From Pseudomonadota bacterium (GTDB lineage: Bacteria > Pseudomonadota > Gammaproteobacteria > Burkholderiales > REEB80), in assembly GCA_018971485.1 (NCBI GenBank), contig JAGXAQ010000002.1, forward strand, positions 171,706-235,705: DNA of 64,000 nt, written 5' to 3'. Position numbers and translations under genes: made by a program. The notes under the pieces were generated by a model. It saw nothing but the letters and a program-made list of their open reading frames with translations, searched no databases and was not told the origin of the DNA. Shown here piece by piece: positions 5,521 to 19,262 of the stretch (the first letter of the stretch is position 1; each line of letters begins with the position of its first letter).

Positions 5521-6203
5521 AAGAAACCAGCATGATCGCAACCACACTCGAAACACATGAAATCAACACGGATAGCTCACCCCGACACAGCATCATCTGG
5601 ATGCATGGCTTAGGGGCTGACGGCTATGATTTTGCACCCATCGTACCTGAACTTGCACTTCCTGCCTCACTATCCATCCGTTTCATTTTTCCTCATGCTC
5701 CATTCCGATCCATTACCCTGAATCAAGGCATGCAGATGCGCGCCTGGTATGATGTTTCAGGATTTGATCGCGACACGCATGAAGACCGGGAAAGCATTGA
5801 ACAAAGCGCTGCCCAGGTCGGCGAGCTGATTCAAAAGGAAAACGAACGGGGGGTCCCGTCCTCTCATATTATTCTGGCAGGATTTTCCCAAGGTGGGGCT
5901 ATTGCTCTTTATACTGGACTAGGATATCCAGAAAAACTGGCTGGTATTATGGCCCTTTCAACCTATCTACCCCTTCGGAACAACCTCATCCAGCATTTAA
6001 CCCCAGCCAACAAGTGGACGTCCATATTCATGGCACATGGCCAGAATGACCCGGTCATTGATATAGAATTCTCAAAAAAATCCCGTGATGCACTTAAGGT
6101 GGCCAATCTTCCTATTCAGTGGGAAGAGTACCCAATGGCCCACTCAGTCTCAAAAACAGAAATTGATGACATAAGCACATGGATTCAACAGGTTTTCAGA
6201 TAA
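5517..6203 (+). CDS. alpha/beta hydrolase, phospholipase/carboxylesterase family
   Basis: 228 aa with WMHGLGADG, the GFSQGG nucleophile elbow and a late HG..D. ATGA overlap with the mog stop. Confidence 0.75.
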   Translation: MKETSMIATTLETHEINTDSSPRHSIIWMHGLGADGYDFAPIVPELALPASLSIRFIFPHAPFRSITLNQGMQMRAWYDVSGFDRDTHEDRESIEQSAAQVGELIQKENERGVPSSHIILAGFSQGGAIALYTGLGYPEKLAGIMALSTYLPLRNNLIQHLTPANKWTSIFMAHGQNDPVIDIEFSKKSRDALKVANLPIQWEEYPMAHSVSKTEIDDISTWIQQVFR

Positions 6204-8052: not shown

Positions 8053-10140
8053 TTAAATGGATTCATAATTTAAAGATACCGGACTTCTAGCAACAGAATC
8101 TAGATCCTCCAGTCCCCACTGGGCCATTTTTACTTTATCGGCCAATGACCATACACCCAGATGCAAGGACAGCATAGAATGACGATCACCTAGCAGGGTA
8201 TTACGTTCTTTCTGTGTCAAATGATCAGGGCCAAGTTCAAGCGCCTTCTGACATAACAGCCTATGTTTGGCACTGTAATTACGATTGCGCTGCAAAGCCA
8301 CATGGAGTGCATTAAGCTGGGGATCAACGACTACTTGAACAAATGGATCATCTTTTAAACAAGGAAACTTAATCCAGATATCCTGCGACAGTTCCAGCAA
8401 TTCTGCAGGAGGATCATGCTCTTCCGGGATCACAAACAGACAATTCTGCCTCGCTGCACGCCCAACGGATGCCCGGCTAGTCCAGACTGCCAAGGGTACC
8501 GCCACTGACATGCCTAATAAAACTGGGGCAAGCCAATCAAAATAACCCTTGCCCAGAAAAAGATAACCCAAGGCGGCCAGAACAAGCCCGACAACTGAAC
8601 ACCATCCAAAATCCTGCCAACCCCCAGCCCATGAAATGGCTTGATCTGAACGAACCTGTACACCCCAACGAGCACTTTTCCCACGAAAAACCTGAAAAAC
8701 AAACTGGCTATGAAAGAACATCCGGATAGGAGCCATTAGAATAGAGTATAGCATCTCCAGGATTACGCTTAATCCTAAACGAATTCTCCCTCCAAACCGA
8801 GTGGCTTGATGAGGCTGGGCTATAACCCAAAATAATGCCATAAATTTTGGAGAAAAAAGCAAAAATGCGGTTAACCCGAATATCCAGGCTGGAAACAGTT
8901 CAAATATTCCTTCTGCATTCATTCCTCCCCCGCTTCTTTGCCAGTACCAGGCAGCAACTGCACCTAACAACAGAAACGCCCCCCATAAGGGAGCAGCGAG
9001 GAATGACATGACACCATTGACAAACAATAATCGATGCGCGGAACGTAATCCTTCACTCCACAACAATCTCATATGCTGAAGATTACCCTGTACCCAACGC
9101 CGATCCCGTTTTAAATCATCAATTAGAGTAGGCGGAACTTCCTCATAACTTCCATCCAGTTCAGGCACAAACCATACTTCCCACCCCCCCTTGGCCATAA
9201 GAGCTGCTTCTACAAAATCATGGCTAAGCAAAACCCCACCTAAAGGCGGATCTCCAGGCAGAACAGGCAAAGCACAATGCCGCATGAATGGTGCTACTCG
9301 CAAAATGGCATTATGTCCAATATAATGCCCATCCCCTAACTGTAAAAACCTCAGGCCAGCGCTAAATAAAGGGCCATAAAGCCGATGCGCAAACTGTTGC
9401 AACCGGGCATAGAGGGTTTCACGATTCACAGCAACCGGCTGAGTCTGGATAATGCCGATCTGGGGATTACCTTCCATCATTTTTAACAAATCCAACAACG
9501 TCCTGCCACTCATGACACTATCAGCATCCAACACCACCATATATTCATATCCCCTACCCCACCGCCTGCAGAAATCGGCAATATTTCCGCTCTTCGCCTT
9601 TTTGTTCATAGACCGGCGACGATAGTGTATGCGCCCAAATCCTTCAAGCATCTTACATAAACCTGCCCAGGCAATTTCTTCTTTAAGCCAAATCTCGGGA
9701 TCACGAGTATCACTGAGTAGAAAAAAATCAAAATAAGACAAGGCGCCTGCCGACTCAAGTGAACGGTACGTTGCCAACAGGCCCAACGCTACACGCCCGA
9801 CTTCTTCATTATAAATAGGTATAACAACCGCCACCCTGGTCTTTTCACGAGGCTGCCCCATAGATAGTTCCGGGCTTCCCTGAGAAATATGCACACTCCC
9901 ACGCAATAATAATATGAAGCCAGCCAGTGCAGTCCAAAAACCTACAGAAACCCAAGAAAAAAGCAGAATAAAAATAACCAGGATAGGTATTTCAAGCCAT
10001 AATGGCAAAGAATAGGCAAATGATTGGGCCAAAAGGGCAGATGCAAAGATAGTAGGAAAGATAACCAACGCCGTAAACCACATACGACGAGACTGGGCAA
10101 TGAGTTTCCAGGCGGGAGGGGGTTTTGTTAAGGCCAACAT
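8053..10140 (-). CDS. opgH: glucans biosynthesis glucosyltransferase H
   Basis: 695 aa multi-TM GT2 with VLDADSVM and QRxRW-like RDRRWVQGNLQH. Downstream of an OpgG/D gene. Confidence 0.9.
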   Translation of the reverse strand: MLALTKPPPAWKLIAQSRRMWFTALVIFPTIFASALLAQSFAYSLPLWLEIPILVIFILLFSWVSVGFWTALAGFILLLRGSVHISQGSPELSMGQPREKTRVAVVIPIYNEEVGRVALGLLATYRSLESAGALSYFDFFLLSDTRDPEIWLKEEIAWAGLCKMLEGFGRIHYRRRSMNKKAKSGNIADFCRRWGRGYEYMVVLDADSVMSGRTLLDLLKMMEGNPQIGIIQTQPVAVNRETLYARLQQFAHRLYGPLFSAGLRFLQLGDGHYIGHNAILRVAPFMRHCALPVLPGDPPLGGVLLSHDFVEAALMAKGGWEVWFVPELDGSYEEVPPTLIDDLKRDRRWVQGNLQHMRLLWSEGLRSAHRLLFVNGVMSFLAAPLWGAFLLLGAVAAWYWQRSGGGMNAEGIFELFPAWIFGLTAFLLFSPKFMALFWVIAQPHQATRFGGRIRLGLSVILEMLYSILMAPIRMFFHSQFVFQVFRGKSARWGVQVRSDQAISWAGGWQDFGWCSVVGLVLAALGYLFLGKGYFDWLAPVLLGMSVAVPLAVWTSRASVGRAARQNCLFVIPEEHDPPAELLELSQDIWIKFPCLKDDPFVQVVVDPQLNALHVALQRNRNYSAKHRLLCQKALELGPDHLTQKERNTLLGDRHSMLSLHLGVWSLADKVKMAQWGLEDLDSVARSPVSLNYESI

Positions 10141-10613
10141 TACCCCTGTAATGCGCGTCGAACTGCTGGAGTTCCTCTCCGAATGCCCAAAACGGTCAAG
10201 AAACGCCTACAAGCATCCCGCCATGAACGATTCAGTCTGAGAGGGACCATGGGCTGTCTCGCTAACGGCGGCTGTAGTTGCTGTTTCAACCACCCGGATA
10301 ATTTTTCCTGATTTTCATGCCGTTTCCGGTTTACACCTGACCAGGGCTGAAGCCGGATACCAAGTTCATCTCCTCCGGAAAGCCGGGCAAGAACTGTCTG
10401 CAAAACAGAAAAAACCAGACCGTAAGATACCTCGGTTTCTCCTGAAAGATTAACCCGTTCCAGCACCTCCTGCCTAATCCTGAAACGCTCGATATCATTC
10501 AATTGCAGACACCGCAGATATTGTTCAATCCGGCTCATTGCCAAATCATTCTTTTTAAGAACAGGAATATCATGGTGTAAACCTGCATTTGCATGGCGAA
10601 TTAGATTATCCAT
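10140..10613 (-). CDS. hypothetical basic protein embedded in the opg operon
   Basis: 157-aa ORF with no TM segment or signal peptide and an Arg-rich C-terminus. Its stop overlaps the opgH start (TAATG at 10138-10142), and it begins 10 nt after the opgD/G stop. I recognise no family. Confidence 0.5.
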   Translation of the reverse strand: MDNLIRHANAGLHHDIPVLKKNDLAMSRIEQYLRCLQLNDIERFRIRQEVLERVNLSGETEVSYGLVFSVLQTVLARLSGGDELGIRLQPWSGVNRKRHENQEKLSGWLKQQLQPPLARQPMVPLRLNRSWRDACRRFLTVLGIRRGTPAVRRALQG

Positions 10614-10622
10614 GAATAAAAG

Positions 10623-12167
10623 TTACTCCTTTGCCGCATTTAATAAATATAGCCAAGTATCACTCATCGTTTTATCATTCAAAACAAGATAGCAACGCAC
10701 ATCAGAAGGATGGCCAGAAACCGGGAGAATCGTAGCAGTTACTCGCCAGGAATGCTCAAAACGATCCCATTTAACTGATTGGTTCAAAATTTTCGCGCCC
10801 CTATCTACTCCTATTACAGCATGGACCCGGGCAGATGCTGACAGGTCTGACAGGCCAGGTCCAGCAAAATCAATCACTACCTGCCTTGATCCAGGTGCTT
10901 TTCCATCGCCTATGTAAGTAGCCACCGGATGACCGTTAGGGATAAGCCTTGGATTATCCAGAAAAAACCTGAGCCGATAGTTAAAATGATACGCTACACC
11001 CGGTGCTGGTTGGTGTTCGGGTATCCAAAAGGCGTCAATATTATCCAGATCTCGATTGTTTGTAGGCAATTCAACAAGCTGGATATGGCCCTTACCCCAT
11101 TTTCCTATGAAACTTACCCAAACACTGGGGCGTAATTGATATTTCGTCTGCAATCCCTCGTAAGAGGAAAAGTGGCGGTCCTGCTGAATCAGGCCAAACC
11201 CCTGAGGTTGATTCATGCCATAGGAAGTTATTTGCGTGTAAAGGGGATCGTTCAAGGGGCGGGTCACCCATTCCCCATTTCCATTTGCCATGACCAAATC
11301 GCTGGAATCATGCTGGGCAGGATGCCAATCTCCTGCCCTGACCCCTCGACCCCTTCCATGCCAGAACATGCTCGTTAAGGGTGCAATCTCAAGCTTCTGA
11401 ACAGGCTTTCTCATATAAATAACAGCCTTGACGCCCACCGTGACTGCTTTGCCTGGGTGAATGGTAAAACAATAGGCCCCAGTCGCAACCTTGCTGTCCA
11501 GAAGAGCATATACCACCATTTTTCTTGAACCATGATGGGGCTTTACAAGCCAGAACTCCCTAAAGTATGGAAAGATCTCACCGGACGGCAAAGCGGTATC
11601 AATACCCAAGCCACGGGCTGACGTACCATAAATCTGCCCAGTACCTACTGCCCTGAAATAACTCGCGCCCAAGAAAGAAATAAACTCATTTCTATGAGGG
11701 GGGGTATTAAGTGGGTACAAAAGCCGGAAACCGGCATAACCCATGTTCGATGGTAACTTATCCCCAATTCGAAGATCGCCAAAAGTGAAGCGGCGGGGTG
11801 AGAACGGGATAGGCTGAACCTGGCCATTAACAACACTATGAATCAAGACTGGGCGTTTAAAATAAGAACCAGGCAAATAAAACTGGGCATCAAATAACAA
11901 ATGTTCCTGATGCCATAAAGGATCCACATCCTGGATCATGGCATATTGAGACGGGGTCAGTTTCCTCAGCAGGCCTGGCACAGGGAAAGGTTTATTGTGA
12001 TAGGGCAAGCCAAGCAACTTTCTGGCTTTGGCCTGAACCTGAGCAAAGCCGAAAACGGTTGCAAATACTGGAGGAACTTGCCCTATGCCCAAAACGAAAA
12101 TACAACATGCAAGAAATAACCGTCTTCGAAACTGGCTTCTCAATACAATTAAGTTTTTTTGATCCAT
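10623..12167 (-). CDS. periplasmic glucan biosynthesis protein, OpgG/OpgD family
   Basis: 514 aa of the MdoG family (GASYFRA, FREFWL motifs). The N-terminal signal contains FRRRLFL, which is Tat-like and so OpgD-like. Confidence 0.85.
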   Translation of the reverse strand: MDQKNLIVLRSQFRRRLFLACCIFVLGIGQVPPVFATVFGFAQVQAKARKLLGLPYHNKPFPVPGLLRKLTPSQYAMIQDVDPLWHQEHLLFDAQFYLPGSYFKRPVLIHSVVNGQVQPIPFSPRRFTFGDLRIGDKLPSNMGYAGFRLLYPLNTPPHRNEFISFLGASYFRAVGTGQIYGTSARGLGIDTALPSGEIFPYFREFWLVKPHHGSRKMVVYALLDSKVATGAYCFTIHPGKAVTVGVKAVIYMRKPVQKLEIAPLTSMFWHGRGRGVRAGDWHPAQHDSSDLVMANGNGEWVTRPLNDPLYTQITSYGMNQPQGFGLIQQDRHFSSYEGLQTKYQLRPSVWVSFIGKWGKGHIQLVELPTNNRDLDNIDAFWIPEHQPAPGVAYHFNYRLRFFLDNPRLIPNGHPVATYIGDGKAPGSRQVVIDFAGPGLSDLSASARVHAVIGVDRGAKILNQSVKWDRFEHSWRVTATILPVSGHPSDVRCYLVLNDKTMSDTWLYLLNAAKE

Positions 12168-12605
12168 TACCGAGTTAGAGCAATAACCTAAATAAAGATT
12201 ACTTCAAGCCCTGTCCGTTTCTATTTAAAACGCTGGCCATGTTAACAATTTTATTCAATGACGTATACGCATCTACGCCCTATAACGCCACAACTTAAAC
12301 AGGAAGGAAACAACTCGATACATGTCAACTGCTGAAGCCAGTTAACTGGTTTAGACATAACAGGATCAGGCCAGACATCTTGATTATCTCTAAAACAGAC
12401 GTTACTAAACAGTTCCTTATCCCTCCTGGAACCCATCTCCCTTACCCACCAGCCTTATTGGATCTTCTTTAAACTAATCCAGTTGAATATAGAAGAAATT
12501 ATCTGTAAATTAAGCCCTAAATAAATTAAACAGATCTGGGCCAGCTTGTTTCCTAACCTTGCCCAAAAAGCAATATGAATCCATTTTTTCACATAAGTAG
12601 AAATC

Positions 12606-13202
12606 ATGCCCAATTCCAGCACACGTCCCATGCTTAACCCGGAAAACTGGCTGGATACATATGGAAACAAGCTATTTCGCTACGCTTTGGGCCACCTTCA
12701 GAATGAAGCCATGGCTGAAGACTGTCTTCAGGATACTCTTCTTGCAGCGCTTGAAAGTATGGGATCATTTCATGGCCAGTCCTCAGAATTAACCTGGCTC
12801 ACCGGGATTCTCAAGCATAAGATAATTGATCTGTATCGGAAGAAACACCATATCACCTATGAAAGCGATCTCACATCAAATGAGGATGAAGATCACACTG
12901 GTGATTTCTTTGATAGTACTGGCCACTGGATTGAAACTCCAACTGATTGGGGAAACCCGCAAAAACTTCTGGAAGAAAAGGCCTTTAAACAGACATTCGA
13001 AACCTGTTTAAAAAATATGCCTGCCGCCTTGGCGCTTATATTCAGCTGCAGAGAATCTTTGGAAATGAATACACAGGAAATCTGCAGGGCATTGGAAATT
13101 ACTGCAGCTAACAGCCGAATCATGCTCTATCGGGCAAGGTTACTTCTTCAAGGTTGCATTCAAACAAAATGGGGCAACCCCCAGGAGGAAAAACTTTCAT
13201 GA
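12606..13202 (+). CDS. ECF-type RNA polymerase sigma-70 family factor
   Basis: 198 aa. Region 2 is FRYALGHLQNEAMAEDCLQDTLLAA. Region 4 HTH is EICRALEITAANSRIMLYRARLLLQ. Confidence 0.85.
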   Translation: MPNSSTRPMLNPENWLDTYGNKLFRYALGHLQNEAMAEDCLQDTLLAALESMGSFHGQSSELTWLTGILKHKIIDLYRKKHHITYESDLTSNEDEDHTGDFFDSTGHWIETPTDWGNPQKLLEEKAFKQTFETCLKNMPAALALIFSCRESLEMNTQEICRALEITAANSRIMLYRARLLLQGCIQTKWGNPQEEKLS

Positions 13203-13453
13203 TGGACTGCCACAAAGCCACACGGCTCATTTCACGTTCTCGCGAAATCAGGTTATCCCTTCTCAAACGCTTTAGCCTATTGCTACACCTGAAAACCTGT
13301 GATCCCTGTAGTCATTTTCTTCGGCATCTTGCCCTGTTTTCACGCGCAGCCAAAGCTACTACCCCTTCTGACAAGAACCTGGATGAAGCTACGAAATCCC
13401 GCATTCTTTCAAACCTAAGTCAACATACCCCCACTCCACGCACGCCCTCTTAA
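13199..13453 (+). CDS. zinc-finger (zf-HC2 / ZAS) anti-sigma factor, short and without a TM segment
   Basis: The ATG at 13199 overlaps the sigma stop (ATGA). The HLKTCDPC motif equals HxxxCxxC, with an extra Cys at residue 4. 84 aa with no hydrophobic span. Confidence 0.65.
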   Translation: MMDCHKATRLISRSREIRLSLLKRFSLLLHLKTCDPCSHFLRHLALFSRAAKATTPSDKNLDEATKSRILSNLSQHTPTPRTPS

Positions 13454-13469
13454 AGAATCTTATTTTTTT

Positions 13470-13497
13470 TGTAACAGATCTTGATTCTGTCCGACTA
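13470..13497 (+). promoter_or_regulatory. candidate ECF-type promoter upstream of the DUF2282 gene
   Basis: TGTAACA at 13470-13476 and CCGACTA at 13491-13497. The AAC-N16-CGAC spacing resembles the ECF consensus GAAC-N16/17-CGTC. About 70 nt upstream of the start codon. Confidence 0.3.
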
Positions 13498-13568
13498 ATG
13501 CTCAGATCGGTCAACGATCACCTCCCCCGGTCTTAAGCCGGTTTCATGACTTGAAAAAAGGAAATAAA

Positions 13569-13838
13569 ATGAAAAAAGAATTTGCCATCCAATCTGCCAT
13601 TGCGGGGCTAGTCGCACTTGGCGCAATTGCTGCCACATCTCCCGCATTTGCGGCAAGTGCCCCCGTCGAAAAATGTTTCGGCATCAATGCACCTCATATG
13701 AATGATTGTGCTGTCGCAAACAGTAGCCACTCCTGTGCCGGACAGGCAACAAAAGCTGACGAAAAAGATGCTTTTGTGCTCGTTCCTCATGGAACATGCC
13801 ACAAAATTGAAGGTGGCAGTCTGACACCTACACTATAA
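13569..13838 (+). CDS. DUF2282 secreted Cys-containing peptide (BufA1-like RiPP precursor)
   Basis: The ATG at 13569 follows an AAGGA RBS. Sec signal is MKKEFAIQSAIAGLVALGAIAATSPAFA|AS. The mature part has 4 Cys (EKCFG, NDCA, HSCAG, GTCHK). The stop overlaps the next start (TAATG). Confidence 0.8.
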   Translation: MKKEFAIQSAIAGLVALGAIAATSPAFAASAPVEKCFGINAPHMNDCAVANSSHSCAGQATKADEKDAFVLVPHGTCHKIEGGSLTPTL

Positions 13839-14689
13839 TGCCAAGTGCCCATCGGGCCATGCCTATTCCGGTTGCGGCCGGAATAGGCTTAAGAAGCCCC
13901 CACTACCGCGATATAGCTACACTATCTCCTTCTATCCCATGGCTTGAGGTCCATGCAGAAAATTTCTTTGGGGACGGAGGTCCCGATATAGCCTGGCTGG
14001 ATCAAATCCGACAGTGTTATCCACTCAGCATCCATGGAGTGGGGTTATCACTAGGAACAGCCGGACAACTTGATATGCAACATCTCAAGGCATTAAATCA
14101 AGTTGTCAGTCATTTTAAACCCGCTCTTGTTTCAGAACACTTAAGTTTCAGCAGGACATCATTTGCTCATGCCAATGATCTGCTTCCCATGCCTTATACG
14201 CGAGAAGCGGTTGAAACCATTGCCACCCACATTATCGAAACCCAAACCGTACTCGGACAAAAGATACTGGTTGAAAATATTTCAAGTTACCTTGAATTTC
14301 CAGAATCCATCATGCCTGAATGGGCTTTTATTGGTGAGGTAGTCAATGCTGCAGATTGCTATCTTCTTCTGGATGTCAATAACCTTTACGTCAATAGTAT
14401 CAATCATGGTTTTGATGCTCTTACCTATCTGGGAGGACTTCCAACAAGCCAAGTCCGCGAAATCCATCTGGCTGGACATACAGTAACCCATCATGCCCTA
14501 ATTGATACCCATGACACTCAAGTCTGTGATGCGGTATGGGATCTTTACACCAAATCTCTCAAGCTAACCGGAAACCAACCCACCTTAATCGAATGGGACA
14601 GCAATATCCCTGAGCTTTCTGTTCTTCTATCTGAAGCTAAAAAGGCTCAGACCTGTCTGGAGCAAAATCATGCCATTATCCCTTGCTGA
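13838..14689 (+). CDS. DUF692 / MNIO (multinuclear non-heme iron oxidative) enzyme, MbnB/BufB-like
   Basis: 283 aa TIM-barrel DUF692 pattern: GIGLRSPHY, WLEVHAENF, SIHGVGLSLG, SEHLSF, LVENISSY, LLLDVNNLYVN, IHLAGH, LIEWD. Confidence 0.85.
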   Translation: MPSAHRAMPIPVAAGIGLRSPHYRDIATLSPSIPWLEVHAENFFGDGGPDIAWLDQIRQCYPLSIHGVGLSLGTAGQLDMQHLKALNQVVSHFKPALVSEHLSFSRTSFAHANDLLPMPYTREAVETIATHIIETQTVLGQKILVENISSYLEFPESIMPEWAFIGEVVNAADCYLLLDVNNLYVNSINHGFDALTYLGGLPTSQVREIHLAGHTVTHHALIDTHDTQVCDAVWDLYTKSLKLTGNQPTLIEWDSNIPELSVLLSEAKKAQTCLEQNHAIIPC

Positions 14690-15446
14690 CTGGCAAACCA
14701 CATTCATGAAAGAACTACAAGGGTCCCCTTCTGCTTTTTTCAAAAAGGCAGTGAACCCTAAAACTGTTCAGGCAAGAACGCTGATTTACCGGAACACTAT
14801 ATTTAACAACAAGCTTAATGCACTTAAAATCTCATTTCCAATCGTTCATGCGCTGATCGGAGACGCCTGTTTTCAGGGGCTGTCACATTCTTATATTGAA
14901 AACCATCCCTCCACTTCAGGGAACCTGAATTTTTATGGAAAAAATTTCCCTGAATTTATTAAAAATAATAATATTATCAATCAGGTAATCTATCTGGCAG
15001 ATATGGCCCGATTAGAGTGGCTTATTCATGAACTTCGATTTACAGCAGAAGACTCACCCAATAATTTAAGTCGATTAGAGTTTGTCCCCAGCCATGCACT
15101 TGAGTCATTACGCTTTCACTTTCAACCTTCAGTCAAAATGCTCCACTCCCCATTCCCGGTAAGCACCATCTGGAAAATGCATCAACCGAACTCAGATATA
15201 AAAACTGTCCACTTGAATGAAGGTGAGGACTGGATCCTGTTACGTCAACTTCAAGGAAAATACTTATTCTTATCTTTATCTCCCGATGCCTGGGTATGCA
15301 CTGAGGCTCTGTTTCGCTTTGAAACCATAGGCTCAGCCTTTAGCCTTGCCATTGAAAAAAACGAACAATTCGATCTTTCAGCCCATCTTACCACCCTAGC
15401 AACACTCAATCTTTTAACTGATTATGTTTTTAAGGAAAAACCATGA
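14670..15446 (+). CDS. DUF2063 protein (BufC-like MNIO partner)
   Basis: 258 aa with N-terminal LQ..F...L and the YRN motif (LIYRNTIFNN..ALKISFP) typical of DUF2063. Overlaps the MNIO gene by 20 nt. Confidence 0.8.
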   Translation: MPLSLADWQTTFMKELQGSPSAFFKKAVNPKTVQARTLIYRNTIFNNKLNALKISFPIVHALIGDACFQGLSHSYIENHPSTSGNLNFYGKNFPEFIKNNNIINQVIYLADMARLEWLIHELRFTAEDSPNNLSRLEFVPSHALESLRFHFQPSVKMLHSPFPVSTIWKMHQPNSDIKTVHLNEGEDWILLRQLQGKYLFLSLSPDAWVCTEALFRFETIGSAFSLAIEKNEQFDLSAHLTTLATLNLLTDYVFKEKP

Positions 15447-15895
15447 AAAACAGCTGCAAAGCCGTCATTAAACTAGCCAAAAATGGAATTGCCGGGCTGG
15501 ACTATTTAAGTCCAGTTATGGATCTGGCCGCCAGAATCTGGCTTGCCAATGTTTTTTTTCGGGCAGGATATGTCAAGATTTCAAGCTGGAGCAGTACACT
15601 TCAACTGTTTGATTACGTTTACCACGTCCCTTATCTCCCACCCCATGTCGCAGCCTATCTGGCAGCAGGCGTTGAACTAGGTGGCTCAGTTCTTCTTGCT
15701 CTTGGATTCGGGGCACGATTTGCTGCCATAGCCTTATCCATTCTCAATGCAACCGCTGTCATATCCTATTCTGGATTAGGAGCAGCTGGGCTTGAAGAGC
15801 ATTTTTTCTGGGGCTTATTACTTCTTATTTTTATTTTTCATGGGCCAGGTAAATTATCACCGGATTACCTCATTAGAAAAAAAATAACAGGCTGA
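15443..15895 (+). CDS. DoxX family membrane protein
   Basis: 150 aa with four hydrophobic helices and a DoxX-like LAARIWLANVFFRAGYVKI. ATGA overlap with the upstream gene. Confidence 0.8.
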   Translation: MKNSCKAVIKLAKNGIAGLDYLSPVMDLAARIWLANVFFRAGYVKISSWSSTLQLFDYVYHVPYLPPHVAAYLAAGVELGGSVLLALGFGARFAAIALSILNATAVISYSGLGAAGLEEHFFWGLLLLIFIFHGPGKLSPDYLIRKKITG

Positions 15896-16140: not shown

Positions 16141-16425
16141 TTAGCATGCTTCAGCCAGGCGCTGAACTTCTTTTGGCGGATTCTGTTGCGCCTGCCATAA
16201 ATCGTATTGAGACTGCATGTTAATCCAGAATTCAGGGGTAGTGCCAAGTGCCATGGAAAGTCTTAACGCCATGGTGGCAGTGATATTGGCGCGGCCATTA
16301 AGTACTGCAGAAATGGCTTGACGGCTCACACCGAGAGCATCGGCTACCTGGCCTATGGTTAAGTTGGCGGGCAAGTACTCGCGCAAAACCTCGCCAGGGT
16401 GTGCGGGATTGAACATTGTGCCCAT
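16141..16425 (-). CDS. higA: HigA-family antitoxin (XRE HTH)
   Basis: 94 aa with HPGEVLREYL...GQVADALGVSRQAISAVLNGRANITATMALRL, the canonical HigA pattern. Lies downstream of the toxin. Confidence 0.8.
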   Translation of the reverse strand: MGTMFNPAHPGEVLREYLPANLTIGQVADALGVSRQAISAVLNGRANITATMALRLSMALGTTPEFWINMQSQYDLWQAQQNPPKEVQRLAEAC

Positions 16426-16470
16426 GATTTATCTCCTCTGACTAACCCTATCAGGGTTGGTTTTAGTAAT

Positions 16471-16749
16471 TTAATGATAGTCCTCATAATCAACCAGTAT
16501 GGCGTTCTCTCCTTCGAATCTGAAAGTTAGCCGCCAGTTGCCATTTACTGAAACTGCATAGACATCTTTCATGTCCCCTTTCAGGGGATGAAACTGCCAG
16601 CCGGAAGCATCCATGTCTTCTGGCTGGATTGCGGAATTAAGCGCTGTAAGTTGTATACGCACTCTTTTTTCATGGGAGGGCTGAATCCCGGCTTTGCTAC
16701 CTGATTCGAAAAACTCCTTAAGCCCCTTATGTTGAAAGCTTTTAATCAT
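16471..16749 (-). CDS. higB: HigB toxin (RelE/ParE superfamily, plasmid maintenance system killer type)
   Basis: 92 aa: MIKSF.HKGL..FF..G...GI........L..L......DM....FHPLKGD....YAVSVNGNWRLTFRFEG....VDYEDYH. Confidence 0.8.
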   Translation of the reverse strand: MIKSFQHKGLKEFFESGSKAGIQPSHEKRVRIQLTALNSAIQPEDMDASGWQFHPLKGDMKDVYAVSVNGNWRLTFRFEGENAILVDYEDYH

Positions 16750-16790
16750 TTTTACATGCTGTATCTCTGATGGATAAGTTGATTGTAAAG

Positions 16791-16809
16791 TGACAAGTTA
16801 CACTTGTCA
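16791..16809. promoter_or_regulatory. perfect 8-bp inverted repeat (TGACAAGT-TAC-ACTTGTCA), candidate HigA operator
   Basis: Read directly from the sequence. Lies 42 nt upstream of the higB start, in the divergent higB / HNH-like intergenic region. Confidence 0.4.
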
Positions 16810-16882
16810 AATGCAAGTATAAATTAATCATTCATTAAACATGAGCCGCTTCGGCGGGTATTTTTATATCTGGAGAAACAAG

Positions 16883-17320
16883 ATGACTCGCGTATCACAA
16901 ATCCACGAAGAAAAGGAAACACTGGTTGTGGACATCAATATCCCTGGTCATGAAGTCCGCACGACAACCAGGTTGTTCACGGAATCAAAGAAGATCCTGG
17001 TCAAACGGGTTGGTGGCCGCTGTTATGTCTGTGGCAGGACGACAGAAGATTCTGGCCACCCCTTGGAAGCCCATCATCATCCCATTGAACGCAGCCTTGC
17101 CAACATGATCGATTGGGATCTGTTCCGCAAGGATTGCGAGGCTGGGGTATGGGGCGAGCATGCCCAGGGTTTTGACTGGTCAAAGTTCGATCCGGCTGAT
17201 CCATACACTTTCGTTGCTGACATGACGGTCAACGGGGAATTACTCTGTAAGGAACATCATACAGGCAAGGATGAAGGCAAGCATAATCTGCCTTTTCCGC
17301 TCTGGATTGCACAGAAATAA
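16883..17320 (+). CDS. HNH-like (Cys/His-rich) phage-related protein
   Basis: CYVCG...EAHHHPIE...NG.LLCKEHH pattern. The ATG at 16883 follows a GGAG RBS. Family assignment is tentative. Confidence 0.4.
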   Translation: MTRVSQIHEEKETLVVDINIPGHEVRTTTRLFTESKKILVKRVGGRCYVCGRTTEDSGHPLEAHHHPIERSLANMIDWDLFRKDCEAGVWGEHAQGFDWSKFDPADPYTFVADMTVNGELLCKEHHTGKDEGKHNLPFPLWIAQK

Positions 17321-17358
17321 GGAAGGTTACCGTTTCACGGACAAGGAGGTTATCCATC

Positions 17359-17823
17359 ATGAAGCCGTCTGAGTTTATTTCCAGAATTTCCCCTGCAGCG
17401 CAGGACTCGATGCAAAGAACCAGGATTCCTGCGAGCTTTGTCATAGCAGAAGGGGCACTGGAATCCGGTTGGGGATCTTCACAGCTGACTGAAATGGGGC
17501 TCAACCTGTTCGGCGTGAAAGCCGACCCGTCATGGCATGGTCCGACCATCGAGATGCGTACACGGGAATACCTGCATGGTGAATGGCTCATGGTGCCAGC
17601 AAGATGGCGAAAATATTCTACATGGCTTGAATGCATTGACGATCACGCGCGGTTCTTGCTGAATAACCCGCGCTATGAGAAAGCGTTCACACATGCCAAT
17701 GATGCGGTTGCATTTACAAGAGCCATCGCGGCAGCTGGTTATGCAACCGATCCATCCTATGCCGGCAAAATCATCTCAATCATCCATGGCCATAACCTGA
17801 TCCAATTCGACAAGGTCGATTAA
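17359..17823 (+). CDS. glucosaminidase-domain peptidoglycan hydrolase (GH73 / FlgJ C-terminal type), phage lysin-like
   Basis: AEGALESGWG, NLFGVKA, TREY, NPRY and AGYATDPSYAGKI motifs. Confidence 0.75.
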   Translation: MKPSEFISRISPAAQDSMQRTRIPASFVIAEGALESGWGSSQLTEMGLNLFGVKADPSWHGPTIEMRTREYLHGEWLMVPARWRKYSTWLECIDDHARFLLNNPRYEKAFTHANDAVAFTRAIAAAGYATDPSYAGKIISIIHGHNLIQFDKVD

Positions 17824-18040
17824 ATCATGAACTGGAAAGGTAATCCTCCCACAAAAAGTTGGGATAGAAGTAGGATTTCCTTCCTCTCAAAAAAAATCAC
17901 GCTAACTGATAGTTAAATGATGATAAGTTAGATGAAGTCGACCGGATAATTTCAATAAATGAAACGCGTAAATTACTGCGCAAATCTTTTTTGAAGATTC
18001 ACCTGCAGAAGTTCTTTTAGAGCTTTTTAAATTCAATCCG

Positions 18041-19039
18041 CTACTTGAATGGTAGCCTTCCTAGTTTAAAGTTTTTAGCTATTTCCTCGGCAGATTCGTT
18101 GTAATAGCGTTGCAACATCTTTAGTTCTCGATGCCCGACCATCCTGCCCAACTCCAGGATGTTCAGCTTCCTTGCCAACATGGTAATCGCATAATGACGT
18201 GAATCATGAAAATGCAGATCCTCGATGTTGGCTTTTTTCCTCACCTTCCTGAACAGATTTTCAATTTGAGAAAGGGTTAATTTGAAGTCACACCCTACAC
18301 GCTCAAGATTAGTGATAGCCTTATCCAACAAAGGAACATCTCGCCTGGCTGCTCGTGTTTTTCCTGCACCGAGTTCACTCCCCCTGATCTTGAGGTAGCG
18401 CTTGTCCAGATAAACATCTTCGGCCTTAAGGACACATATCTCACCCTGCCTCATCCCTGTTTCCAGGGCAAACAAGAATACCTGGCCCACTCTTCCCATC
18501 ACGCTTTTGATATTGTCTCCGAATACTTGCATCAGCTGGTCAATTTCATCCTGCGTGATAAGCCTATCCCGTCCTTCGGGTTCTTTTGGTTTGGAAGCAT
18601 CACTAAATGGATTTTTAGCAAGCAGTTTCCACTCCTTAACAGCCTTGGTGCAAATGGAAGAGAGAAGGTTCCATTCACGCCGGACAGTACCCTCTGATAC
18701 GGACTGCAGGCGTTCATCCCGCCACTTGCCAACATGAGTCTCGCATCCATCTCTGATAAGCACACACTGGCGATGCTTTGGCGGCTTATGGCTTGTATCC
18801 TTATTTTTTCCACACGCTCCCCTTTTTTTCTTGATCGAAACCTCATTGGCATATTTATCCATGAGCTCACTGAAAGCCATGGTGACGACCTTTTCGTGTT
18901 TACCGGATAAAATGGCCTGCTCGGTTTCTTCAATCCACTGAAGCGCTTCCAGCTTCGTATCACGGGTTGCCGATTTCCTGACACCTTTTAACACGACTTG
19001 CGCCCTCCATGTTTTGCCTCGTTTAGTAAGAGTACCCAT
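18041..19039 (-). CDS. tyrosine-type site-specific integrase (open ORF, but the central segment is probably frame-disrupted)
   Basis: Catalytic signature ETGMRQGE (R), HDSRH (HxxR), GH and LQRYY (Y). Adjacent to a tRNA. See the finding on the 18740-18829 frame anomaly. Confidence 0.8.
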   Translation of the reverse strand: MGTLTKRGKTWRAQVVLKGVRKSATRDTKLEALQWIEETEQAILSGKHEKVVTMAFSELMDKYANEVSIKKKRGACGKNKDTSHKPPKHRQCVLIRDGCETHVGKWRDERLQSVSEGTVRREWNLLSSICTKAVKEWKLLAKNPFSDASKPKEPEGRDRLITQDEIDQLMQVFGDNIKSVMGRVGQVFLFALETGMRQGEICVLKAEDVYLDKRYLKIRGSELGAGKTRAARRDVPLLDKAITNLERVGCDFKLTLSQIENLFRKVRKKANIEDLHFHDSRHYAITMLARKLNILELGRMVGHRELKMLQRYYNESAEEIAKNFKLGRLPFK

Positions 19040-19186
19040 ATGACCCCATAGGAGGTCTGGTGTAAATTTGGTGTAAACCTACCACAAAATACAGGGTGAA
19101 ATGTGATATTTTGGGAATATGCAGGAAATAAAAAATCCGTTTAATCAAAAAGATAACGGATAATCATTATATTGCAGGTATAGGGG

Positions 19187-19262
19187 TGGTGCCGGAAAGA
19201 GGAGTCGAACCCCCGACCTTCGCATTACGAATGCGCTGCTCTACCAACTGAGCTATTCCGGC
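19187..19262 (-). tRNA. tRNA-Thr (anticodon CGU)
   Basis: The reverse complement reads GCCGGAATAGCTCAGTTGGTAGAGCAGCGCATTCGTAATGCGAAGGTCGGGGGTTCGACTCCTCTTTCCGGCACCA. It forms a cloverleaf with anticodon loop TTCGTAA and is nearly identical to E. coli thrW. Confidence 0.95.

Follow-up and report, generated by a model that had tools for sequence, protein, structure and literature searches.

A predicted membrane-free anti-sigma factor of the MseR/HrsE family encoded between an ECF sigma factor gene and a bufferin operon

The protein type considered here, including the positions of its four ligands, is already known from work on Neisseria published in 2010 and on Haemophilus published in 2021. Hopman et al. 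(2010) reported that MseR of Neisseria meningitidis matches the C11/H37/C41/C44 ligand set of RsrA (PMC2893595). Deletion of MseR derepresses the rpoE operon and msrAB, and the substitutions C34A and C37A lead to loss of anti-sigma activity, and C4A to its loss or weakening (PMC2893595). HrsE of Haemophilus influenzae co-purifies with the sigma factor RpoE2 and blocks promoter activation; Nasreen et al. (2021) assigned RpoE2 to ECF group 13, and the ZAS motif is defined as C/H-x23-26-HxxxCxxC (PMC7907618). MseR and HrsE have both been shown to bind and inhibit their sigma factors. Of RsrA, MseR, and HrsE, RsrA alone has demonstrated zinc binding (PMC4960319); its residues E39, E40, L45, and E46 confer redox sensitivity (PMC3177212).

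Here we describe a gene pair of this type in the window, that is, the whole 64,000-nucleotide stretch of burkholderialean DNA that was analyzed (table 1). Judged from its sequence and that of its relatives, the 84-aa product is a real, membrane-free anti-sigma factor of the zinc-finger type, predicted to bind zinc, that probably keeps the adjacent sigma factor off an operon for a copper-binding peptide.

Table 1. Features of the sigma/anti-sigma locus and the adjoining operon (positions in the window)
Feature	Coordinates	Strand	Basis or remarks
Possible autoregulatory promoter 5' of sigma gene	12527..12557	+	TAAACAGAT-N14-TTCCTAAC; weak call
ECF sigma factor, 198 aa	12606..13202	+	Pfam Sigma70_r2 9e-13 + r4_2; TIGR02943
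Shine-Dalgarno AGGAGG of anti-sigma gene	13183..13188	+	Within sigma gene 3' end; direct read
Anti-sigma gene	13199..13453	+	84 aa + stop; soluble; CHCC ZAS type; MseR/HrsE family (predicted)
Cys4 codon	13208..13210	+	Predicted N-terminal zinc ligand, counterpart of RsrA Cys11
ZAS motif His30-x3-Cys34-x2-Cys37 (HLKTCDPC)	13286..13309	+	Invariant; aligned to RsrA H37/C41/C44
Predicted helix IV, residues 63-75 (LDEATKSRILSNL)	13385..13423	+	Conserved C-terminal element of long form; AF2
Putative sigma-dependent bufferin-operon promoter	13463..13499	+	T8 tract, -35 GTAACAGAT, 12-nt spacer, -10 CGACTAAT
BufA1-type precursor (DUF2282), signal peptide	13569..13838	+	Pfam PF10048 8.2e-21
BufB, MNIO maturase	13838..14689	+	NF050167 MNIO_BufB 359 bits (cut-off 310); Pfam PF05114 6.6e-103
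BufC/HvfC-type partner protein (DUF2063)	14670..15446	+	Pfam PF09836 1.7e-19
DoxX-family membrane protein, operon's last gene	15443..15895	+	Pfam PF07681 1.2e-17

The 84-aa protein and its relatives

The forward-strand translation of 13199-13453 begins MMDCHKATRLISRSREIRLSLLKRFSLLLHLKTCDPCSHF and runs for 84 aa to a stop codon; the source record annotates this ORF as a hypothetical protein. Its ATG at 13199, with AGGAGG 10 nt upstream, forms an ATGA (13199-13202) in which the start codon overlaps the stop codon of the sigma gene. The neighboring gene product scored 185.8 bits against NCBIfam TIGR02943 (cut-off 162.2), and 564 homologues of this sigma factor were found. The closest orthologue of the anti-sigma protein, at locus L082, is also 84 aa long, starts with the same ATGA overlap, and is 57% identical, a figure taken from the near-identical representative P0122. 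A word-indexed homologue search with the 84-aa query returned the query itself as its sole match and was insufficient, so the relatives were gathered by an exhaustive phmmer search. A word-indexed search with the family alignment had no named Neisseria or Haemophilus member among its matches.

Cys4, His30, Cys34, and Cys37 are the only invariant columns in the 87-sequence family alignment. [quoted passage not shown] A gapless hhalign alignment of the family profile with RsrA, whose sequence was verified against PDB 5frf, placed C4/H30/C34/C37 on C11/H37/C41/C44. Of 81 loci with a related sigma gene, 78 have a short ORF with the pattern C-x25-HxxxCxxC directly 3' of that gene. Because the ligands alone are invariant (n = 87) and the pattern recurs at these loci, we rejected the idea that the ORF arose by chance or is non-coding. 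The ATGA overlap with the TIGR02943-family gene places the ORF beside an ECF sigma factor gene with which it is presumably co-transcribed.

Profile searches placed the relatives more clearly than the protein itself. The ZAS HMM alignment suggested with the original prediction left the 84-aa protein below the cut-offs of both NF052368 and zf-HC2. NCBIfam NF052368 "antisigmaE" covered residues 1-46 (model positions 1-46 of 48) at E = 4.9e-11, although at 42.3 bits the match missed the curated cut-off of 50; all 87 relatives matched this model (best 2.4e-23). Pfam zf-HC2 (PF13490) gave 10.3 bits and E = 0.78 against a gathering threshold of 22.2, whereas 53 of the 87 relatives matched at E ≤ 0.01 (best 5.3e-9), so the protein is a zf-HC2 member by transitivity through these homologues. 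The RsrA model TIGR03988 had no match to the 84-aa protein at E ≤ 1 and matched 16 of the 87 relatives weakly (best 4.1e-6). Comparison of the family profile with PDB sequences returned no ZAS structure, only spurious weak matches (CENP-S, bL31).

The protein is small (below about 110 aa) and has neither a transmembrane segment nor an extra domain. Its Kyte-Doolittle hydropathy averaged over 19 residues peaks at 0.61, and stretches without D, E, K, R, H, N, or Q reach at most five residues. The relatives at the 78 sigma-linked loci are 55-103 aa long (median 82.5), and no transmembrane-like segment was found among them (maximum 19-residue mean 1.24). Short three-helix forms of 55-67 aa account for 27 of the 78, the 84-aa protein being of the long form, for which four helices are predicted. 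[quoted passage not shown] Of the 51 long-form relatives, 48 have a helix IV motif of the type L-x-x-x-A-x-x-R-I, which is absent from all 27 short forms. In the PDB, six of the seven best Foldseek matches were anti-sigma domains (MucA, RslA), none of them significant.

The original prediction of a soluble protein with these four ligands at RsrA-equal spacing is thus borne out by the hydropathy values, the translation, and the gapless alignment. The pairing it proposed, of a ZAS protein with the adjacent sigma factor upstream of a RiPP operon, agrees with the ligand invariance, the NF052368 matches, and the gene order. Its description of the protein as minimal was inaccurate, since this is the longer form with four predicted helices, and 27 of 78 relatives, as well as HrsE at 67 aa, are shorter.

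The bufferin operon and putative sigma-dependent promoters

The anti-sigma gene is followed by an operon of precursor, MNIO (DUF692), DUF2063, and DoxX genes at 13569-15895; the product of such operons is bufferin, which binds copper (PMC11626156). An MNIO gene lies downstream in 20 of the 70 related loci that have enough downstream sequence. An earlier suggestion that DUF2063 acts as an anti-anti-sigma factor was set aside; current annotation makes this family the partner of the MNIO enzyme in RiPP maturation/recognition (HvfC/BufC).

The 115-nt gap between the anti-sigma gene and bufA contains a conserved promoter-like site, of which the part GTAAC-N-CGACTAAT occupies 13471-13499. L082 retains the T-tract, GTAAC, and CCGACTAATGC, with divergence in the flanking bases. 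The -10 element agrees at seven of eight positions with CGTCTAAH, which is the consensus of another organism's sigma factor, Neisseria sigmaE; the spacer is 12 nt compared with 12-13 nt in Neisseria, and the -35 element opens with GTAA, as does GTMAGBWTT (PMC2893595). The pattern GTAA-N16-19-CGNCTAA has a single match within the window, upstream of bufA, and no sigma-70-like promoter was found at this site. A search for k-mers common to the sigma-upstream and precursor-upstream regions found no shared motif in 20 other loci, so the basis of the promoter call is the footprint at L082 together with the Neisseria consensus.

A second candidate site precedes the sigma gene. The 9-mer AACAGATCT is common to this site and the bufA promoter and has only these two exact copies in the window, and the elements xxAxCAGA...CCTAA are kept with equal spacing at L082. 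Its spacer exceeds that of the bufA promoter by 2 nt, so that an autoregulatory promoter of the sigma gene is suggested only weakly.

Release of the sigma factor and nature of the signal

The account toward which we lean, with moderate confidence, is that the protein is a CHCC anti-sigma factor of the MseR/HrsE family and that modification of its thiolates frees the sigma factor to transcribe the bufferin operon. Translation of the anti-sigma factor would be coupled to that of the upstream sigma gene through the ATGA overlap. The product would fold into a four-helix anti-sigma domain with helices I-III tied together by zinc held by Cys4, His30, Cys34, and Cys37 and would sequester the sigma factor, by analogy with other anti-sigma domains with helices I-III on region 2 and helix IV on region 4. 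Modification of the thiolate ligands, probably by strong oxidants such as HOCl and H2O2 and possibly by thiophilic metals, would expel the zinc, collapse the domain, and release the sigma factor. The freed sigma factor would then transcribe bufA-bufB-bufC-doxX from the 13471-13499 promoter and perhaps its own operon too.

The cytoplasmic signal originally proposed (thiol oxidation, an electrophile, or a thiophilic metal) is plausible but unproven, and the evidence is mixed. The N-terminal Cys of RsrA is required for disulfide-stress sensing and oxidative release (PMC4960319). Exposure of H. influenzae to HOCl or H2O2 increases rpoE2 expression, and the induction by HOCl of a DoxX/COG3220 (MNIO)/DUF2063 cluster needs RpoE2 (PMC7907618). 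Neither H2O2, diamide, singlet oxygen, nor SDS-EDTA, however, activated meningococcal sigmaE (PMC2893595), so a CHCC site is no guarantee of RsrA-like redox sensing. The cytoplasmic signal originally proposed therefore stands in part: the N-terminal Cys and the H. influenzae responses favor it, while the unresponsive meningococcus and the missing RsrA determinants speak against it. A cytoplasmic sensor for a product acting in the periplasm had also been called notable, but this arrangement was already documented in Neisseria and Haemophilus.

It is possible, though on our assessment unlikely, that the zinc site is purely structural, so that the anti-sigma factor does not itself sense thiol chemistry and release of the sigma factor depends on regulated proteolysis of the anti-sigma factor, on another protein that partners it, or on control of the operon's transcription. 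The failure of meningococcal sigmaE/MseR to respond to H2O2, diamide, and singlet oxygen (PMC2893595) would fit such a role, as would the redox insensitivity of many ZAS proteins (PMC3177212) and the potential OxyR sites 5' of H. influenzae rpoE2, which suggest added transcriptional control (PMC7907618). The residues that determine redox sensitivity in RsrA (E39/E40/L45/E46) are moreover missing from the 84-aa protein, where they are replaced by K32/T33/S38/H39, and from its family; neither of the two residues before CxxC is acidic in any of the 78 relatives. Against a structural role, the N-terminal ligand is invariantly Cys and never His in 87 sequences, and by the RsrA work this Cys sets disulfide-sensing CHCC proteins apart from HHCC proteins (PMC4960319); the induction of the H. 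influenzae system by HOCl and H2O2 (PMC7907618) also argues against it. Direct sensing of cytoplasmic Cu(I) or Au by the Cys3His site, with the metal displacing zinc, freeing the sigma factor, and so switching on a copper-chelating peptide, is improbable. The controlled operon does encode a copper-binding bufferin (PMC11626156), Cu and Au induce gig/bufferin operons of Legionella and Cupriavidus, and the chemistry of a thiolate-rich site suits Cu(I). Yet a metal response has been demonstrated in no homologue, and the Cu/Au-induced operons studied so far use other regulators, namely membrane-bound NrsF/RsqA with ECF16 (Caulobacter, Cupriavidus), or, in Legionella, have no identified regulator. 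In both Neisseria and Haemophilus, msrAB is under the control of this sigma family, a link that suggests damage by oxidants and not metal. Should sensing of Cu(I) or another thiophilic metal nevertheless prove true, entry of metal into the cytoplasm would be tied to the making of copper-chelating RiPPs for the periplasm (bufferins and oxazolins) in many Proteobacteria, and an anti-sigma factor that senses metal in this way, by metal exchange, would be of a type so far undescribed.

Least credible of all is that the ORF is an artefact, whether a piece of a longer, membrane-anchored anti-sigma factor cut off by a frameshift or an ORF that arose by chance and is non-coding; the short length and the "hypothetical protein" annotation speak for this and nothing further. 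A frameshift concealing a longer protein, a transmembrane helix, or an additional domain had been named from the outset as an observation that would overturn the interpretation, and comparison contradicts it: the relatives are short and free of transmembrane segments across the 78 loci, and the L082 orthologue has the same length and overlap. The strong Shine-Dalgarno sequence and the conserved promoter-like site in the gap before bufA also count against an artefact.

Comparison with described systems

The annotation of the ORF can be changed from "hypothetical protein" to predicted anti-sigma factor for the sigma factor encoded next to it and likely switch of the bufferin operon. What is added to prior knowledge is small: in many uncultured Beta- and Gammaproteobacteria, the same sigma/short-ZAS module precedes MNIO clusters of the DUF2282-bufferin type as well as those of the EGKCG/oxazolin type.

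MseR (NMB2145), compared through its published description, has its ligands at Cys4, His30, Cys34, and Cys37, numbering identical to that found here (PMC2893595). Both proteins are small, lack a membrane anchor, are encoded directly 3' of an ECF sigma gene, and are linked to an operon for DoxX, DUF2063, DUF692, and a small periplasmic protein (NGO1943-1948 in the Neisseria context). The Neisseria sigma promoter has a similar -10 element and spacer (PMC2893595). In Neisseria, however, the four genes precede rpoE within one six-gene operon, whereas here they follow the sigma/anti-sigma pair and have a promoter-like site of their own.

HrsE is likewise a cytoplasmic, peptide-sized ZAS protein with the C/H-x23-26-HxxxCxxC motif, and its sigma factor RpoE2 controls a DoxX/MNIO/DUF2063 cluster (PMC7907618), a cluster of the same kind adjoining the gene pair here. 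At 67 aa HrsE falls in the size range of the short forms, and the 84-aa protein has an extra conserved element, the predicted helix IV. The H. influenzae DoxX cluster is unlinked and has an oxazolin precursor (HvfA), in contrast to the adjacent DUF2282 bufferin of this locus. RsrA of Streptomyces coelicolor (PDB 5frf/5frh) shares the CHCC set with identical spacing and the solubility, and the AF2 model of the 84-aa protein resembles it in having four helices with the ligands in corresponding places, but RsrA differs in partner sigma family and phylum, and the 84-aa protein has no extra cysteines.

The SigF/NrsF pair of Caulobacter and the RpoQ/RsqA pair of Cupriavidus also combine an ECF sigma factor with an anti-sigma factor next to a bufferin/gig cluster. 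NrsF and RsqA are membrane-bound ECF16 partners thought to sense the periplasm, unlike the soluble, ZAS-type 84-aa protein. RpoQ/RsqA was rejected as a homologous pair, having an ECF16 sigma factor, a membrane-bound anti-sigma factor, and no demonstrated control of gig by RpoQ. A 2025 MNIO survey recorded sigma and NrsF genes in Buf1 clusters and left ZAS anti-sigma factors unmentioned; the ZAS protein is poorly detected by Pfam and does not appear in recent bufferin surveys, which list sigma and NrsF genes only. Since the ZAS module is found at MNIO clusters, bufferin-type clusters have at least two regulatory designs, one with membrane-bound NrsF and one with a cytoplasmic ZAS protein.

The 84-residue product and its relatives

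The start codon of the anti-sigma ORF shares ATGA with the TGA stop of the upstream sigma gene, and the product carries the label ‘hypothetical protein’ in the source record (Proteobacteria MAG). Its translation holds only three cysteines and places the ligands at Cys4, His30, Cys34 and Cys37, as originally noted. The expectation of a soluble product was likewise borne out: the Kyte–Doolittle mean over 19 residues peaks at 0.61, stretches without charged or strongly polar residues reach at most five residues, and no membrane-spanning segment was found in 19-residue windows.

A word-indexed homologue search returned no match besides the protein itself; phmmer, run exhaustively against 1.84 billion cluster representatives, recovered 119 proteins (E ≤ 0.001), nearly all of 56–125 aa. 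In an alignment of 87 of these, only C4, H30, C34 and C37 are invariant. One match, P0191 (276 aa), has an unusual multi-domain anti-sigma architecture: C-x25-HxxxCxxC recurs in three ZAS-like domains in tandem, and the C-terminal segment beyond them is hydrophobic. As an independent test, we examined the ORF just 3′ of the sigma gene in 80 fetched loci with sigma-factor relatives and in the source contig. At 78 of the 81 loci, this ORF encodes 55–103 aa (median 82.5) containing C-x25-H-x3-C-x2-C, the first Cys being residue 3 or 4 in most, and none of the 78 has a TM-like segment (maximum 19-residue mean 1.24).

The closest orthologous locus, L082, encodes a sigma factor 69% identical to that of the window and an 84-aa anti-sigma factor with the same ATGA overlap and four downstream genes; the latter is one residue off a phmmer representative (P0122) that shares 57% identity with the window protein. 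A frameshift or hidden extra domain was ruled out because the relatives are comparably short and TM-free and this orthologue is of equal length. NCBIfam NF052368 ‘antisigmaE’ aligns to the window protein (E = 4.9e-11, model positions 1–46 of 48) at 42.3 bits, under the curated cut-off of 50, and Pfam zf-HC2 matches it weakly (E = 0.78). NF052368 matches all 87 aligned relatives, zf-HC2 matches 53 of them (E ≤ 0.01) and the RsrA model TIGR03988 matches 16. The window protein is very probably a functional anti-sigma factor of the MseR/HrsE type.

Gene neighbourhood and candidate promoters

A complete bufferin-type cluster follows the anti-sigma ORF after a gap of 115 nt (table). Our proposal is that the protein works as ZAS proteins typically do: its Zn(Cys3His) site would tie helices I–III into an anti-sigma domain sequestering the co-translated sigma factor; thiolate modification would release zinc and the sigma factor, which would then transcribe from a promoter within the gap. 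No sigma-70-like promoter was predicted there. Compared with the Neisseria sigmaE consensus (−35 GTMAGBWTT, 12–13 nt spacer, −10 CGTCTAAH, AT-rich element upstream; PMC2893595), the putative bufA promoter agrees at seven of eight −10 positions and exactly in its 12-nt spacer, and its −35 begins GTAA. L082 keeps the T-tract, GTAAC and CCGACTAATGC while adjoining bases diverge, and GTAA-N16-19-CGNCTAA occurs only at this site in 64 kb. A second, weaker candidate, possibly autoregulatory, lies upstream of the sigma gene and has a spacer 2 nt longer; it shares with the putative bufA promoter the 9-mer AACAGATCT, present in exactly two copies in the window.

Between the putative bufA promoter and the bufA start codon lies a small hairpin, CCGG-TCTTAAG-CCGG, which in L082 (~5920–5940) reads CGGG-CTTACAA-CCCG, one base pair being changed on both sides. 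In 12 related loci, GTAAGG...-N12-CG[AT]CTAA, agreeing with the Neisseria consensus and correctly spaced, lies within the 3′ portion of the sigma gene, where it encodes C-K-x-L-x-I-[ST]-x-[ST]-N in sigma region 4, against a rough chance expectation of about 2–3 loci; it is absent from the window's sigma gene (13083–13112). This motif could drive the anti-sigma gene and those downstream as an internal sigma-dependent promoter, or could be a coincidence of codon use.

A small integrated island separates doxX from fur in the window. In L082 fur directly follows doxX, which marks the island as an insertion at the tRNA. OpgH/MdoH and OpgG/MdoG, whose presumed relatives lie just upstream of the sigma gene, are makers of periplasmic glucans.

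Features of the window and in-gene motifs of related loci
Feature	Position	Strand	Detail
Presumed OpgH/MdoH-like (695 aa) and OpgG/MdoG-like (514 aa)	8053-12167	−	by eye from translations
Possible autoregulatory site	12527-12557		TAAACAGAT-N14-TTCCTAAC
ECF sigma factor gene	12606-13202	+	Pfam Sigma70_r2 + r4_2; TIGR02943 above curated cut-off
AGGAGG	10 nt upstream of ATG (13199)	+
Anti-sigma ORF	13199-13453	+	MMDCHKATRLISRSREIRLSLLKRFSLLLHLKTCDPCSHFLRHLALFSRAAKATTPSDKNLDEATKSRILSNLSQHTPTPRTPS, 84 residues
T8 tract, putative promoter	13463-13470
Putative −35	13471-13479		GTAACAGAT
Putative −10	13492-13499		CGACTAAT
Leader hairpin	13526-13548
DUF2282/BufA1 precursor	13569-13838	+	signal peptide
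BufB, MNIO maturase	13838-14689	+	NF050167, 359 bits (cut-off 310)
DUF2063/HvfC-type partner	14670-15446	+
DoxX	15443-15895	+
Island	16141-19262
Presumed HigB/HigA-like toxin-antitoxin pair	16141-16749	−	from ORF translations
Presumed HNH-like ORF	16841-17320		from ORF translation
Presumed lysozyme/glucosaminidase-like ORF	17359-17823		from ORF translation
Presumed tyrosine integrase	18041-19039	−	from ORF translation
tRNA-Thr(CGT)	19187-19262		confirmed; beside integrase ORF
In-gene motif	L002 2070-2097; L017 4018-4045; L024 6491-6518; L025 6464-6491; L026 921-948; L027 884-911; L033 6108-6135; L054 2144-2171; L059 6449-6476; L061 6470-6497; L069 6434-6461; L077 2285-2312

Predicted fold and the possible signal at the predicted zinc site

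The AlphaFold2 model, with the family alignment as input (pLDDT 88), has helices at residues 4–14, 21–33, 35–53 and 63–75. Helix I opens with Cys4, His30 falls close to the end of helix II, and Cys34/37 sit where helices II and III meet, a layout also described for Streptomyces coelicolor RsrA (PMC4960319). The seven top Foldseek matches in the PDB include six to anti-sigma domains (RslA and the cytoplasmic domain of MucA), all at E > 1; a sequence search with the family profile found no solved ZAS protein. Alignment of the family to RsrA with hhalign (RsrA sequence checked against PDB 5frf) is gapless over 39 columns (E = 0.019) and pairs C4/H30/C34/C37 with C11/H37/C41/C44, upholding the proposed RsrA-equivalent spacing.

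The original prediction of a thiol-type signal fared less evenly, and sigma release by thiol oxidation at, or modification of, the predicted zinc site is in our view plausible but a little short of probable. In its favor, the N-terminal ligand is Cys in all 87 aligned relatives, the Cys11-to-His (HHCC) change in RsrA abolishes oxidative dissociation (PMC4960319), and the H. influenzae system is responsive to HOCl and H2O2 (PMC7907618). Against it, meningococcal sigmaE is unresponsive to H2O2, diamide, singlet oxygen and SDS-EDTA (PMC2893595), and E39, E40, L45 and E46, which confer redox sensitivity on RsrA (PMC3177212), are K32, T33, S38 and H39 in the window protein; among the 78 sigma-linked relatives, the two residues preceding CxxC are hydrophobic, none being acidic, and the ones that follow it are mostly basic or polar. 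That the zinc site is only structural seems unlikely, and direct metal sensing decidedly more so: among the Cu/Au-induced gig/bufferin operons studied to date, those of Caulobacter and Cupriavidus have membrane NrsF/RsqA-type anti-sigma factors, whereas the window protein is of the soluble ZAS type, and the Cu/Au-induced operon of Legionella has no identified regulator.

Family forms, RiPP clusters and known systems

Two forms make up the 78 sigma-linked relatives. The long form (51/78) carries in 48 of 51 cases an LSxxAxxRI-type C-terminal motif predicted to form helix IV; the short form (27/78), in which the last Cys is followed by no more than 32 residues, is without this motif and in the size range of HrsE. 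The window protein is a long form with predicted helix IV and therefore not ‘minimal’, as first described, 27 of the 78 relatives being shorter. An adjacent downstream MNIO gene occurs at 19 of 51 long-form versus 2 of 27 short-form loci (Fisher p = 0.006). Fifteen loci (L001, L002, L004, L005, L007, L008, L011-L016, L019, L020, L035), from Methylophilaceae, Gallionellaceae and similar, have an EGKCG/oxazolin-type repeat protein as precursor together with an MNIO gene; DUF2282 bufferins take that place in the window, L082, L024 and L060. Since it precedes both precursor types, one sigma/short-ZAS module serves both RiPP classes. For Buf1 clusters, a 2025 MNIO survey reported genes for sigma factors and NrsF and left ZAS proteins unmentioned, which fits the family's weak Pfam signal. 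The two forms, the skew of the MNIO link to the long form and the single module before both precursor classes are modestly new.

For NMB2145/MseR of Neisseria meningitidis, encoded directly 3′ of rpoE in the operon NMB2140-2145, Hopman et al. (2010; PMC2893595) had reported Cys4/His30/Cys34/Cys37 and their match to RsrA C11/H37/C41/C44. Deletion of MseR derepressed the operon and msrAB; the H30A variant kept its anti-sigma activity, which the C4A, C34A and C37A variants lost. Nasreen et al. (2021; PMC7907618) found that HrsE of H. influenzae (67 aa) is cytoplasmic, co-purifies with RpoE2 and blocks RpoE2-dependent promoters; rpoE2 expression rises with HOCl and H2O2, and the DoxX/COG3220/DUF2063 cluster needs RpoE2 after HOCl. 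Because these studies cover its key points, the original observation, including the RsrA comparison and a cytoplasmic regulator for a periplasmic product, repeats published findings on homologues. The gonococcal operon comprises NGO1943 (unknown function), NGO1944 (ECF sigma), NGO1945 (DUF2063), NGO1946 (DUF692), NGO1947 (periplasmic protein) and NGO1948 (DoxX) (PMC2954202), the same gene set as in the window.
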